A stretch of DNA of 64,000 bases from an uncultured Bacilli bacterium. GTDB taxonomy: Bacteria; Bacillota_I; Bacilli_A; RF39; UBA660. Of the stretch, positions 25,038 to 30,035 are shown piece by piece (the first letter of the stretch is position 1; every line of letters starts with the position of its first letter). A program made the position numbers and the translations under genes. The stretch covers positions 3,836 through 67,835 of the forward strand of contig CALVJD010000002.1 in NCBI GenBank assembly GCA_944332005.1. The letters are read 5' to 3'. The notes under the pieces were generated by a model. That model worked only from the letters and a program-made list of their open reading frames with translations. It made no database searches and was not told the DNA's origin.

Positions 25038-25111
25038 TGGAGCAGCTGAGGAGAATCGAACTCCCGTCTCAACCTTGGCAAGGTTGCATTCTACCATTAA
25101 ACCACAGCTGC
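25038..25111 (-). tRNA. tRNA-Gly(GCC)
   Basis: Acceptor gcagctg/cagctgc, anticodon loop ttGCCaa, CCA encoded. Confidence 0.8.
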
Positions 25112-26511: not shown

Positions 26512-26634
26512 TGTATATCTAATGGAGCCACAGTCGAGCCTATCTCGAACTTTTTCTCAAAAGAATATTGATAAATATCAAATCTATTAATATTTTACTA
26601 AATTACAATAAAAATATCAATGCTATATATCTGA

Positions 26635-27756
26635 TTATTTAAAATTTTTGAGGTTTAAATATTTATGATAAGTTTTTGCAAAATTATACCTTATTGAATA
26701 AAAAAGCTGATAATGTGGATTAATAGTACTGTTAAAATCAGATTCTTTAATGGATTTATATATATCATTTTCAATTGTTTCGCTATTAACAAAGGTAAAT
26801 ATTTCTTCTAAATTTTTATCAATATAATAGAAACATAGTATAGTTTTTTCTGAATGTTTTACTCGTTCTTCATATCTTTCATTAAAATTAATATTAGTAG
26901 GTAATACATAGCTTTCCCAAACAACAAAAATGCCAATAATATGTTCTCTTTCTATTTGCGTAGATATGGTATTTATTTTTCTATAAAATGTGGCCTTTGA
27001 TTCAGCTAAAAAGGGATTTATTTTAAAAGTTTTATCTTTATAAAATATAAACATAGTAGGCATTATATGTTGTTTTTGTAATTTATAAATAAGAATATGA
27101 CATGAAATGAAATCTTTAAACATATCTTTTAAATTATTACTTTGGAAAAAGTTATTATTTATTGGAACTTTTTCTTCTTTTTTATTTATATTATTATCAT
27201 TAAATCCTAACATTTTTGCTCTAGATTTAGGCTCTAGTAAATTGGTGCTTGGTATATATTTATAATCTCTCTCTAAACATAATTCATATATGCATATTTC
27301 TTTAATTTTTTCAGAAATTTTTAATTCCATATTTTCACATTTAAGACAGTTAGTATTGGTGGATAATTTAAATTGTGTAAGAAAACTATTCATATCGGCA
27401 ACTCCATGTTTTATTAAATCAATAATATTTATTTCTTTACCATTTTCAGTAAATCTAATTATAATAGACAAATATATTTCTGGTGCTTTAAATGTTTTTA
27501 GTTTCTCTTTAATTTCGGTTTCTAATTGTTTTGCATTTTCCCAATTTTCATAAGTATAGTTATGTTTTATAATTTCATTACTATTTCCATAAAAATATAC
27601 ATTCACCATTATTTGCTTATTTAATTTAAAGGGATTTTGATGAATTACTTCAACTCTCTTATCGTTAAGCCATTTTAATTCATCACTGATTAAATATTGA
27701 TCTCTTAATTGCTTATATATTTTCTTATTTTTGGAAGAATCTAATGATTTTTGCAA
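26635..27756 (-). pseudogene. hypothetical protein, very AT-rich, no recognisable domain; apparently the 3' part of a gene split by a frameshift in an A7/T7 tract
   Basis: The 373-aa frame starts only at a TTG with no RBS. The upstream 45-aa ORF fuses in-frame if the T7 run at 27783-27789 gains one T or loses two. Confidence 0.5.
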
Positions 27757-27764
27757 AACAAATG

Positions 27765-27902
27765 TTATATTTCTAAATTCAGAAAAAAACTATCAATGGA
27801 AGAAACTACATCGCAAAATTCTTCTGCTTTTATAAAGTCAGATAAGTTTTTTAAAGCACTATAAAATTTTTGATATGACGTACACATTATACAATTACTC
27901 AT
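27765..27902 (-). CDS. 45-aa Cys-containing ORF, probably the N-terminal part of the frameshifted downstream gene
   Basis: Strong RBS ggaggtatat upstream of the ATG. It ends 8 nt before the TTG of the 373-aa frame. Confidence 0.4.
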   Translation of the reverse strand: MSNCIMCTSYQKFYSALKNLSDFIKAEEFCDVVSSIDSFFLNLEI

Positions 27903-27973
27903 ATATACCTCCTCATTGTTTTCTCAGTATTATAGCATAAAAAAACAAAATTTTCGGTTTTGTTTTTAGAATA

Positions 27974-29071
27974 TTATATATAATTTATTTTTTCAGCTTT
28001 TAAAATAGCATCAATATATTCTATTGTGTAATCACGAATAAATTTCTTTGGAGATAAAACCCAAGAATTTATTTCATTATACAATCTTTCGAATCCGATT
28101 TCTCCATATTGATTATAAAATTCAGAATAATTAATTAGGCCTTCTTTTAAATATTCTCTGTACGCTTCATTTCCCACATACATTCTTTTTGACAATTTAC
28201 TTCCTGACCAATCTAATATTGTTGGAGTATAAATGATACTTGGAACATCATGTATTTTCATTTTTAACAATGGTTCCATATAAACTCGTAAAGGCCACAT
28301 TCCAGACCAATCGCCACCATCAACAATAACATTTAACGAATTATCAATTTTATCTTGTTTTAATAAATATAAAATTTTTACTAAATAACGCAACGGTACA
28401 TTCATATCAAAATTGTCATTACTATTTTTGTCGATGTTTACTTCAAAATTGCCATGTTTTGGACAAAAAGAATTTATAATAATTTTATTGTCTACAGCTT
28501 TAATTTTTGTATTAGAAAGATGTTTTTCTGTTAAGCCACATTTAGGGCATGGGACTCTTAATCTAATTTCGCCATTTTTTGGATCTAAAGTGTATCTTAA
28601 TTCTTTTTCGTTCTGTATTACTTCATAAAGTGCTTCTTTTACTAATGGATTTTTTTGATAATCATAAAAAAATAATACCTCATAATTTATTTTGTCTTTT
28701 TTACTTAATTTGTCTAATAACTCTTTAAAATAGGGGAAAAATTTTTCTTTAATTGTTAATCCATTATTATCTTTAACAATATTTAAATTTTTGTAATACT
28801 TAATTCCATCTATCATAAATTCTTCGCCAGTAACACTTTCTAAAAGCTCAACTTTTATTTTTACTGGAACATTATAATATTTTTTGAAATGTTTAGCTAA
28901 TGCAAAGGCTGAAATAAAATTGGTTAGAGTACCGACATGTGGGTAACTATTAACCTGTGCTGAAAGCCATAAAACAATTTCCTTTTTTCCGTCCATTTTG
29001 TTTTTTATAATTTCTGCTAAATCATCTATTATATAATTCATTCCTGCTAATGGATAATATACATTTTTCAT
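27974..29071 (-). CDS. truncated class I aminoacyl-tRNA-synthetase-like protein (class I LysRS-like catalytic core, no anticodon-binding domain)
   Basis: HIGH-like NSYPHVGT, KMSKS-like GSKLSKR, and a Zn knuckle CPKC..27 aa..CPKH. It is 365 aa, against ~520 aa for class I LysRS. Strong RBS gaggagg. Confidence 0.55.
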   Translation of the reverse strand: MKNVYYPLAGMNYIIDDLAEIIKNKMDGKKEIVLWLSAQVNSYPHVGTLTNFISAFALAKHFKKYYNVPVKIKVELLESVTGEEFMIDGIKYYKNLNIVKDNNGLTIKEKFFPYFKELLDKLSKKDKINYEVLFFYDYQKNPLVKEALYEVIQNEKELRYTLDPKNGEIRLRVPCPKCGLTEKHLSNTKIKAVDNKIIINSFCPKHGNFEVNIDKNSNDNFDMNVPLRYLVKILYLLKQDKIDNSLNVIVDGGDWSGMWPLRVYMEPLLKMKIHDVPSIIYTPTILDWSGSKLSKRMYVGNEAYREYLKEGLINYSEFYNQYGEIGFERLYNEINSWVLSPKKFIRDYTIEYIDAILKAEKINYI

Positions 29072-29649
29072 TTTGACCTCCTCGTTATGTATCCCGCTTT
29101 AATTATATCATATTTCTTATTTTTGGTATATTCAACATCTTTTAACTTAAATTCTTCTGTCATTTCCATTTCCTTACAGGTCATACAAAAATTGTCTTCA
29201 TATAATTTTGAGTGAGAATTGATATATTCTTTATTATATAATTCTTGTTTTTCTAAATACTCATATACTGCTGGAAAATTTTGAATATTCAAATAACATT
29301 GTGGGACATTAAAATGACTATCAATTTCTTTTATTTTATTTATACTTATTGGTTGTTTAAATAATTGTAGAGATTCTATAGGAATAGCAAATTTTTCTCC
29401 ATTTTTAAGGCAATTTTTAATTCTATCATATATAATAGAATCTTTATTATAATCGTCTATTTTTTCAGCTGTATGTATTGGTTTTCCCAATTCCATTATG
29501 CCTACTACTTCTTGTACAGGGGCGCTTAAATAAAGATATGCTGTCGTTGGTTTATCACAAAATCTTTTTCTGTATTCATACATTTTCATGTTATATAATA
29601 TTGGCCTAAAAAATTCAGGTCTAAAACTCAAAAAAATTTTTCTTTTCAT
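29068..29649 (-). CDS. ASCH/PUA-like domain protein
   Basis: N-terminal KIFLSFRPEFFRPILYNMKMYEYRKR pattern is typical of ASCH domains. Its stop overlaps the downstream ATG by 4 nt (ATGA). RBS ggaggt. Confidence 0.5.
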   Translation of the reverse strand: MKRKIFLSFRPEFFRPILYNMKMYEYRKRFCDKPTTAYLYLSAPVQEVVGIMELGKPIHTAEKIDDYNKDSIIYDRIKNCLKNGEKFAIPIESLQLFKQPISINKIKEIDSHFNVPQCYLNIQNFPAVYEYLEKQELYNKEYINSHSKLYEDNFCMTCKEMEMTEEFKLKDVEYTKNKKYDIIKAGYITRRSK

Positions 29650-29696
29650 TTATTTTACCTCCAATCAACAAAAATGCAATTTAAGTTTCTGCTTAA

Positions 29697-29730
29697 ATTA
29701 TAACATATAAATACTAAATTATAAAATTAG
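29697..29730 (-). promoter_or_regulatory. candidate promoter of the islet operon (extended -10 TGtTATAAT on the minus strand)
   Basis: Extended -10 read on the minus strand with a weak -35. It lies about 45 nt upstream of the first gene. Confidence 0.35.
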
Positions 29731-29892
29731 CGTGTGATATATTTTAATGTTATTTAAAAGCAAAATGTTATTTATTTTTTAAACTTTTCTGCATTTCACA
29801 AATAACATCAATTTCTTTTTCAAAGTATCATTAATTGGGTTTTCTTTCTTAATAACATTTACCATTAATAAATCACTCTCACTTTCTTAAAC

Positions 29893-29961: not shown

Positions 29962-30035
29962 TGGAGCGGATGATGAGAATCGAACTCACGTAGTCAGCTT
30001 GGAAGGCTGAGGTTCTACCATTAAACTACATCCGC
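29962..30035 (-). tRNA. tRNA-Gly(TCC)
   Basis: Acceptor gcggatg/catccgc, anticodon loop ctTCCaa, CCA encoded. Confidence 0.8.

Follow-up and report, generated by a model that had tools for sequence, protein, structure and literature searches.

Stand-alone cores of aminoacyl-tRNA synthetases (aaRSs) carry out some unexpected chemistry, as seen in Glu-Q-RS, MshC, TmcAL and the cyclodipeptide synthases; Glu-Q-RS acylates queuosine and TmcAL acts on C34. TmcAL, an aaRS-like enzyme, acetylates cytidine 34 of tRNA at N4 and takes acetate as its substrate, while N4-acylcytidine, whether free or within tRNA, is deacylated by ASCH proteins (bioRxiv 10.64898/2026.02.27.708502). Here we consider a gene, T, within a 64,000-nucleotide stretch of a contig from an uncultured Bacilli bacterium (CALVJD010000002.1; the whole stretch is referred to as the window). 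T encodes a protein resembling the catalytic core of class I lysyl-tRNA synthetase (LysRS-I) and is paired with a gene, B, for an ASCH-fold protein. From the sequences, predicted folds and gene neighbourhoods of T and its relatives we suggest that T may be an adenylate-forming ligase whose ASCH partner holds the nucleotide or nucleobase to be acylated, and that in the window the pair would constitute a mobile conflict module. We put the probability of this reading at around 0.5. The features discussed are listed in Table 1.

Table 1. Positions in the window of T, its motifs, its partner and the surrounding features (aa, amino acids; ORF, open reading frame).
Feature	Position	Strand	Basis
T, stand-alone class I LysRS-like catalytic core, 365 aa	27974..29071	minus	intact ORF, ATG start
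HIGH-like NSYPHVGT, aa 41-48, after SAQ.N substrate loop	28928..28951	minus	residue invariance; HMMER alignment to 1irx ..TPSGYVHVGN..
Zinc ribbon CPKC...CPKH, aa 175-206, in connective-peptide insertion	28454..28549	minus	invariant residues; PF01921 coverage in relatives
CPKC, aa 175-178	28538..28549	minus	
CPKH, aa 203-206	28454..28465	minus	
GGDW, aa 252-255, class I GxD(H) ATP-ribose motif	28307..28318	minus	G252 and D254 invariant
KMSKS-like loop GSKLSKR, aa 290-296	28184..28204	minus	invariance; alignment to GluRS/ValRS KMSKS loop (phmmer/hmmsearch against the PDB)
C-terminal motif PKKFIRDY, aa 341-348, in short helical tail replacing the anticodon-binding domain	28028..28051	minus	conservation
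B, ASCH-fold partner, 193 aa	29068..29649	minus	AlphaFold2 model, Foldseek, PADLOC, ASCH motif
Upstream leader of the B-T operon, within the shared island	29650..29821	minus	island homology to 29821
X, third island gene, frameshifted, outside the conserved core	26635..27902	minus	373-aa ORF called
Low-GC mobile island with X, T and B, 3.3 kb	26518..29821		shared span and GC content
tRNA-Gly(UCC), 140 nt outside island edge 29821	29962..30035	minus	ARAGORN and Rfam; outside the shared island

Fold, ancestry and active site of T

The AlphaFold2 model of T, based on an alignment of 70 sequences, is of high confidence (pLDDT 92.9, pTM 0.92) and shows the HUP fold of the class I aaRSs. This is the fold on which an earlier note on this DNA, made from the sequence alone, had staked its proposal that T is a stand-alone core similar to that of LysRS-I. 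The most similar structure in the PDB, as judged by Foldseek, is the LysRS-I of Pyrococcus horikoshii (1irx; E 6e-10, TM 0.58 with respect to the query), followed by GluRS, MetRS, CysRS and BshC. The note had also said that the anticodon-binding domain is missing and the protein short for a LysRS. In the model only around 70 residues follow the KMSKS-like loop, forming short helices (residues 315-338, 341-344 and 350-357), and the 365 residues of T compare with 523 in the P. horikoshii chain, 1irx_A.

At the level of sequence the relationship is distant. T itself gave no match to PF01921, the Pfam family of LysRS-I, at E≤1, and none to an NCBIfam LysRS model; the only NCBIfam match, at the KMSKS loop, was to the GluRS model TIGR00464 with 15.7 bits against a threshold of 290. 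Searches of the PDB with the sequence or a profile likewise returned just marginal matches to GluRS and ValRS at this loop, PHROGs returned only a Streptomyces-phage 'tRNA synthetase' family, and no family from Pfam, NCBIfam or PADLOC could be assigned. Among the 70 relatives, on the other hand, 16 match PF01921 below the threshold (best E 2e-5, 24.1 bits against a cut-off of 27 bits), and these matches are colinear, with residues ~31-217 of the T family corresponding to profile positions 18-221. T has the fold and the HIGH and KMSKS motifs of a class I LysRS, but does not reach the Pfam threshold and lacks the anticodon-binding domain. That it is a HUP core derived from LysRS-I seems to us almost certain.

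The motifs NSYPHVGT, CPKC...CPKH and GSKLSKR are found exactly at the positions given in the earlier note, and aligning the family profile to residues 8-56 of 1irx with HMMER places H45 and G47 of T on H35 and G37 of the LysRS. Conservation was assessed over 70 homologues with 30-89% identity to T. In the HIGH region Q39, N41, P44, H45 and G47 are invariant and T48 is conserved in at least 90% of sequences; at the zinc site R172, C175, C178, C203 and H206 are invariant, as are N224 and the GxD residues G252 and D254. Around the KMSKS-like loop P283, D287, G290, K292 and K295 do not vary (S294, at least 90%), and the same is true in the tail of W337, R346 and Y348 (P341, at least 90%). Such invariance across 70 homologues means that the motifs have not arisen by chance. 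The zinc segment, which also gives a weak match to the Zn_ribbon_HMPTM profile, had been described as an inserted knuckle. It is indeed present and invariant; it is not, however, a novel insertion, because PF01921 aligns colinearly across it (T-family residues ~125-217 with profile positions 121-221), and the ribbon is thus inherited from LysRS-I. A database search with T gave 114 homologues, none with a functional annotation. The T gene is split in four of the related loci (L031, L041, L065 and L077) and fragmentary in two (L032 and L034), which suggests occasional decay of the module or errors in the assembly of metagenome-assembled genomes (MAGs).

To compare the active sites, residues were mapped onto segments of 1irx taken from its alignment with the LysRS of Halovirus HGTV-1. 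The HMMER alignment equates S37, Q39, N41, T48 and position 51 of T with G27, T29, S31, N38 and E41 of 1irx, respectively. By motif register, rather than by superposition, GGDW (252-255) would correspond to GKDH (237-240), Y/F281 to Tyr268, K292 to K279, W/Y255 to His240, and a hydrophobic residue at 221 to Trp218. The signatures for handling ATP are all kept in T, which also has the second lysine of KMSKS that is absent from LysRS-I. The ε-amine of the lysine substrate in 1irx is bound by Glu41 and Tyr268, with its chain flanked by Trp218 and His240. These ligands are not conserved: the position of Glu41 is Asn (N51) in T and Thr in most relatives, and that of Tyr268 appears to be either Tyr or Phe. 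As the ATP signatures are kept and the lysine ligands are not, T probably adenylates an acid other than lysine; on the residues conserved it is very likely to be catalytically active in adenylation without being a LysRS. The proposal in the earlier note that T acts on something other than tRNA-Lys is consistent with the Glu41 and Tyr268 positions, and with the mobile island and the ASCH pairing described below, all of them indirect lines of evidence.

The ASCH partner and the gene clusters of relatives

B lies directly upstream of T, its stop codon overlapping the T start codon by 4 nt (ATGA), and Shine-Dalgarno sequences precede both genes; B and T are translationally coupled. The AlphaFold2 model of B (pLDDT 95.1) is most similar by Foldseek to the Zymomonas ASCH protein 5guq (E 3e-8), and then to EOLA1, the McrB N-domain and the ASCH domain of TRIP4. 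The ASCH motif GxKxxExR reads N-M-K-M-Y-E-Y-R in B, with Asn rather than the consensus Gly at the first position, and K22, E25 and R27 do not vary among 47 sequences; the motif was present in all partner proteins inspected. With its PUA-like fold and K/E/R motif B belongs to the ASCH superfamily, more specifically to the 'GKER' type together with ZmASCH, EOLA1 and TRIP4, and not to the Thr-containing amidohydrolase type of YqfB. B of the window's clade differs from these in a C-terminal helical extension of ~70 residues. B does not reach the Pfam ASCH family PF04266, whereas a second ASCH gene found in relatives does. In PADLOC, B matches the candidate-defence model PDC-M11B (the window protein with E 1.3e-13, its homologue in L003 with E 2e-22).

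To see how general the pairing is, ORFs were labelled with purpose-built hidden Markov models (HMMs) in 92 loci encoding relatives of T. A gene of the ASCH superfamily lies within 7 kb of T in 81 of the 92, and within 50 nt in 56 of these. The 11 exceptions are mostly contig ends or fragmentary T genes; in the L068/L072 variant no ASCH partner was detected, and this and the rearranged L043 are not explained in that way. The gene order depends on the clade, being B>T in that of the window and T>B or T>B>ASCH in Mollicutes-like Bacilli, the candidate phyla radiation (CPR) and DPANN. The pairing is kept as the identity to T falls from 89% to ~23%, the lowest values being in actinomycete plasmids and phages. 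In some proteins the two are fused: T with B in P0309 and P0375 (from the yeast Pseudohyphozyma), and T with ASCH in P0359 and P0372. Pfam found nothing in the extra regions of ten long T fusion proteins, and it was the purpose-built HMMs that revealed the B and ASCH fusions. A partner that adjoins T, in some proteins is fused to it, and takes up the end from which the anticodon-binding domain has been lost would most simply be the acceptor-binding subunit of the enzyme. That the ASCH protein is a functional partner of T we consider likely.

Further clues to the substrate come from the larger clusters in which more distant relatives of T are found. An extended operon shared by 32 loci consists of genes for a NUDIX protein, a thymidylate-kinase-like kinase, B, a UbiE-type methyltransferase, an AlaDH/PNT-family dehydrogenase, a second methyltransferase, an AlkZ-like DNA glycosylase (one or two genes), T and a pyruvoyl S-adenosylmethionine (SAM)-decarboxylase-like enzyme. 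It is exemplified by L045 (3979-11426), and about 20 gut-Bacilli loci have the same layout. The AlkZ-like glycosylase, AlaDH-like dehydrogenase and methyltransferase occur in 32 loci, the SAM-decarboxylase-like enzyme in 27, NUDIX in 17 and thymidylate-kinase-like kinases in 14-17; in P0101 and P0106 the SAM-decarboxylase-like enzyme is fused to T. L068 is arranged differently, as decarboxylase, T, three kinases, NUDIX, AlaDH, methyltransferase and AlkZ. In L073 T stands between a nucleoside 2-deoxyribosyltransferase (NDT)-like gene, its immediate upstream neighbour, and a MazG-like gene, its immediate downstream neighbour, which ABC-F and B follow; an APH-type kinase comes before the cluster. 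On a Pantoea plasmid the order is SAM-methyltransferase, T, LOG/TIGR00730, a DMT exporter and an RdgB/HAM1 pyrophosphatase, and on a Macrococcoides plasmid T and its ASCH partner come after two ATP-grasp ligases, upstream of which an MFS transporter and regulators are encoded in the divergent direction. PhyH dioxygenases and GNAT proteins are present in other clusters, and in L003-L005 a 2'-5' RNA-ligase-type (2H) phosphoesterase follows the cluster.

Four independent cluster architectures thus place T beside enzymes of free nucleotides. The occurrence of free-nucleotide kinases, pyrophosphatases and N-glycosidases together with exporters and resistance-like genes suggests that the substrate of T is at the level of the nucleotide or nucleoside. 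Judged by their gene content, the extended clusters (the L045 type, L068, L073 and L094) look like pathways to a tailored nucleotide or nucleoside. Alternatively, their enzymes could supply a modified deoxynucleoside triphosphate for the hypermodification of DNA, in which case DNA would be the target of the AlkZ-like and ASCH proteins.

The mobile island and the spread of the family

In the window B and T are part of an island with a GC content of 23.8%, compared with 33.7% in the rest of the window. The island is 97.7-98.0% identical in three MAGs (L012, L013 and L014) over exactly the span given in Table 1, with unrelated flanks, and outside it no further matches of 300 nt or more were found between the window and these loci. 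Promoter-like hexamers are present in the leader on the minus strand (29747-29718 and 29725-29697), these being consensus matches only. The island contains no integrase, and no convincing att-like direct or inverted repeats were seen at its ends. The nearby tRNA-Gly(UCC) gene, of a kind that typically marks sites where islands insert, is possibly the landmark for its insertion. A second tRNA-Gly gene (GCC) is located at 25038-25111 on the minus strand, such that the UCC and GCC genes bracket the region.

Elsewhere in the clade of the window, one copy adjoins a serine recombinase that interrupts a PBP gene, and copies are also found beside genes for helicase, nuclease and SSB proteins. More distant relatives adjoin the integrase in Picard and Mojorita, two temperate phages of Streptomyces, where the two genes are annotated as 'tRNA synthetase' and 'RNA binding protein', and others are on plasmids, one of them beside a gene annotated as a Pycsar effector. 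The island, phage and plasmid locations argue that this is a conflict or accessory module and not a housekeeping gene. A role of T and B in defence is possible, though in our estimation somewhat short of an even chance. The MAG BRZ_ID__bin45 holds both forms of the system, the two-gene island (L014, with 99% identity in T) and a ten-gene cluster (L046, 34%); the two-gene island and the extended cluster thus coexist there and are probably not redundant.

The family itself is large. A full HMM search of 1.84 billion representatives gave 549 T clusters with a cut-off of E≤1e-3, and 197 when this was tightened to E≤1e-30, counts which indicate that bona fide LysRS-I had not been drawn in. The ~550 clusters, defined at 50% identity, share an architecture of ~360 residues. 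Bacterial members come from gut Bacilli, Clostridia, isolates of Thermoactinomycetaceae, Saccharibacteria, WWE3, Peribacteria and one Burkholderiaceae MAG, and archaeal members from Aenigmarchaeota, Micrarchaeia, Pacearchaeota and Nanobdellati; the plasmids are from Pantoea, Macrococcoides and actinomycetes. In basidiomycete fungi T often occurs as tandem domains with a degenerate second copy. Examples are P0253, P0258, P0260, P0291 and P0298 from Abortiporus, Antrodiella and other basidiomycete-like sources, all of them, like P0375, annotated as hypothetical. One of their two copies, as a rule that at the C-terminus, has a degenerate HIGH-like motif but a largely intact KMSKS-like loop. Neither the family nor its pairing was found described in literature searches on PDC-M11, LysRS-like paralogues, aaRS-like proteins with ASCH, and the contexts of PUA-like domains, and there is no curated model for the family in Pfam, NCBIfam or PADLOC.

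X has an intact homologue of 421 residues, P0385, which maps to the window in two frames (residues 1-40 to 27902-27783 and 44-421 to 27774-26638), so that the frameshift is either that of a real pseudogene or an assembly error. X was found in 4 of the 92 loci and has three homologue clusters among 5.8 billion proteins. No domain could be detected in it, and a precomputed match to PF26900 on two of the homologue clusters was not reproduced by a Pfam scan. Seven tRNA genes (Lys, Val, Ile, Asn, Glu, Leu and Ser), on both strands between 12916 and 13977, are unrelated to T.

Candidate function and comparison with known systems

In the mechanism we propose, T would use ATP to adenylate a carboxylate, an amino acid or something similar, by means of the HIGH, GxD and KMSKS machinery. 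The ASCH partner would take the place of the lost acceptor-recognition domain, binding the acceptor and presenting its nucleobase, and T would then move the acyl group onto the acceptor to give an N-acyl or aminoacyl nucleotide or nucleoside; less likely, the acceptor would be a base within RNA or DNA. In the clusters of the distant relatives the product may be made from, or turned into, free nucleotides by the kinases, pyrophosphatases and N-glycosidases, and then be tailored by the methyltransferases, AlaDH-like dehydrogenase and pyruvoyl decarboxylase. The two-gene cassette in the window would be a mobile conflict module directed against phage or competitors. The parts of this scheme are not equally secure. 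It is reasonably probable that the acceptor is a nucleotide or nucleobase of some kind, free or polymeric; the chance that this acceptor is free, as opposed to being tRNA or DNA, is about even. The module probably serves genetic conflict or the making of a specialised nucleotide product.

Given the precedents of TmcAL and the deacylating ASCH proteins, the combination of an N-acyl-base 'writer' with an ASCH reader or eraser is chemically coherent. An ASCH-like fold has also been reported for a DNA glycosylase acting on 5-hydroxymethylcytosine (PMC13160076), and PUA-like domains serve in defence as sensors of modified nucleotides in their free form (bioRxiv 10.64898/2026.01.15.699771).

A number of observations weigh against this scheme. 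The nucleotide-enzyme contexts belong to relatives that are just 30-37% identical to T, and only B, and sometimes X, is conserved beside T in the clade of the window. Many of the 32 loci with the extended cluster are from MAGs of related gut Bacilli, so that the counts overstate their independence. Rfam scans of the island and seven related loci gave neither a riboswitch nor a T-box from which a ligand could be read. As to conflict, T matches no PADLOC model, which places it outside the catalogued defence systems, and a scan of IMG/VR found the family on one contig only. The zinc ribbon that T retains is the connective-peptide region, which in GluRS and LysRS-I contacts the acceptor stem of tRNA, and the ASCH precedents also fit a tRNA target.

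These last points bear on the best of the alternatives, in which T would be directed at tRNA, either acylating a tRNA base under the guidance of the ASCH protein or aminoacylating the 3' end without reading the anticodon, with the ASCH paralogues serving as RNA-binding subunit, eraser or both. Apart from the class I core with its connective-peptide ribbon and the removal of N4-acetylcytidine in tRNA by ASCH proteins, the annotation of the Streptomyces phage partner as an 'RNA binding protein', the 2H phosphoesterase in L003-L005 and the T>B>ASCH trio in the reduced genomes of CPR, DPANN and Mollicutes-like Bacilli would all be in keeping with it. It is hard, however, to explain in this way the repeated association with NUDIX, MazG, HAM1, NDT/LOG and kinases resembling those of deoxynucleoside monophosphates, together with exporters. 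The absence of the anticodon-binding domain also counts against it, and the island location and patchy distribution do not suggest a housekeeping modification of tRNA. We regard a tRNA-directed enzyme as unlikely.

A ligase of the MshC/BshC type, joining an amino acid to an amine that is not a nucleotide (a sugar amine, polyamine or peptide) with the ASCH protein in an accessory or immunity role, would account for the ATP-grasp pair, MFS transporter and regulators on the Macrococcoides plasmid. The SAM-decarboxylase-like, AlaDH-like and methyltransferase genes would represent polyamine- or opine-like chemistry, and the PhyH dioxygenases and GNAT proteins of other clusters would also fit. It leaves unexplained both the near-universal ASCH partner, with its fusions, and the nucleotide kinases, pyrophosphatases and glycosidases, and no glycosyltransferase or deacetylase of bacillithiol or mycothiol synthesis is found nearby; we think it distinctly unlikely. 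Less likely again is that T makes a signal such as a diadenosine tetraphosphate (Ap4A)-like or aminoacyl-nucleotide messenger, aaRS enzymes being able to make Ap4A from the adenylate, with the ASCH protein acting as its sensor or as an effector such as an RNase similar to the Zymomonas protein. The locations on a mobile island, prophages and plasmids suit such a system, as does the existence of PUA-like sensors of free nucleotides in defence. The closest structure to B is that of an ASCH protein for which an RNase activity directed specifically at single-stranded RNA is reported (Kim et al.). The fusion of synthase and effector in one polypeptide would nevertheless be unusual for signal-based systems, T is absent from PADLOC, and the large, biosynthetic-looking clusters would be left unexplained. 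Finally, a pseudogene or decaying LysRS remnant without a function of its own, which the shortness of T and its split or fragmentary relatives might bring to mind, is in practice ruled out by the pattern of conservation, with ~550 clusters of the same architecture, invariant catalytic residues, a conserved new C-terminal motif and a conserved partner.

Returning to an ASCH-assisted acylation of nucleotides, T and its partner might more broadly be the core of an undescribed system for (amino)acylating nucleobases across the three domains of life, T being a 'writer' derived from LysRS-I, in which an ASCH domain that binds modified bases would have replaced the lost anticodon-binding domain, and its products a new class of aminoacyl nucleotides, a suggestion that we make only tentatively. 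If it were true, these products could serve as nucleotide analogues with antiviral or antibiotic action, or amount to a new hypermodification of DNA or RNA, and the cassette in the window would be the minimal mobile form of the system. Confirmation would provide a new way of making acylated nucleotides or nucleic-acid bases, with possible relevance to phage defence, nucleoside-type antibiotics and DNA hypermodification, and a function for ~550 protein clusters that have no functional annotation. The cultured carriers Laceyella putida, Lihuaxuella thermophila, Croceifilum oryzae and Macrococcoides bohemicum, and lysogens of the Streptomyces phage Picard, make the proposal directly testable.

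Among known systems only the ASCH-like component is shared with PDC-M11: B matches PDC-M11B, but neither T, X nor the proteins of the L003 cluster match a PDC-M11A, and T-B is therefore not this system. In comparison with MshC and BshC, the cysteine ligases in the synthesis of mycothiol and bacillithiol, T keeps the HIGH and KMSKS motifs and the zinc ribbon, and its partner and neighbours point to nucleotides. T is not a Glu-Q-RS or a TmcAL on the basis of model scores (the GluRS score is given above); there is no match to a Pfam family that would include TmcAL, which is placed in the 'HIGH nucleotidyl transferase' family PF05636. It resembles Glu-Q-RS (YadB) and TmcAL in being a stand-alone class I core without a normal anticodon-binding domain, and in both of these the adenylate chemistry has been redirected to a base instead of A76, the product class of TmcAL, N4-acylcytidine, being recognised by ASCH enzymes. 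T is, however, nearer to LysRS-I than to GluRS or MetRS, and to our knowledge no dedicated ASCH partner or nucleotide-metabolism cluster goes with either Glu-Q-RS or TmcAL.

LysRS-I (PF01921, 1irx) has the same HUP core as T, matching it residue for residue in the HIGH region and sharing the position of the connective-peptide zinc and motifs of the GxD and KMSKS type. T differs in being ~160 residues shorter, in lacking the helical anticodon-binding domain and in scoring below the Pfam gathering threshold; it has its own conserved SAQxN and PKKFxRDY motifs, an ASCH partner and a location on a mobile island. A second, independent shortening of LysRS-I is seen in the 'class I LysRS' of Halovirus HGTV-1 (375 residues; L099 43946-45073, NC_021328 93946-95073), which is genuinely related to LysRS-I (E 2e-25 to 1irx). 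Here the connective-peptide region (1irx 160-213) is unmatched and part of the C-terminal domain is kept, and at the profile level it is unrelated to T (hhalign probability ~1%). T would be the first stand-alone aaRS-derived offshoot of the class I LysRS lineage, and its ASCH partner and gene clusters provide a built-in clue to its acceptor, pointing to modified nucleotides.

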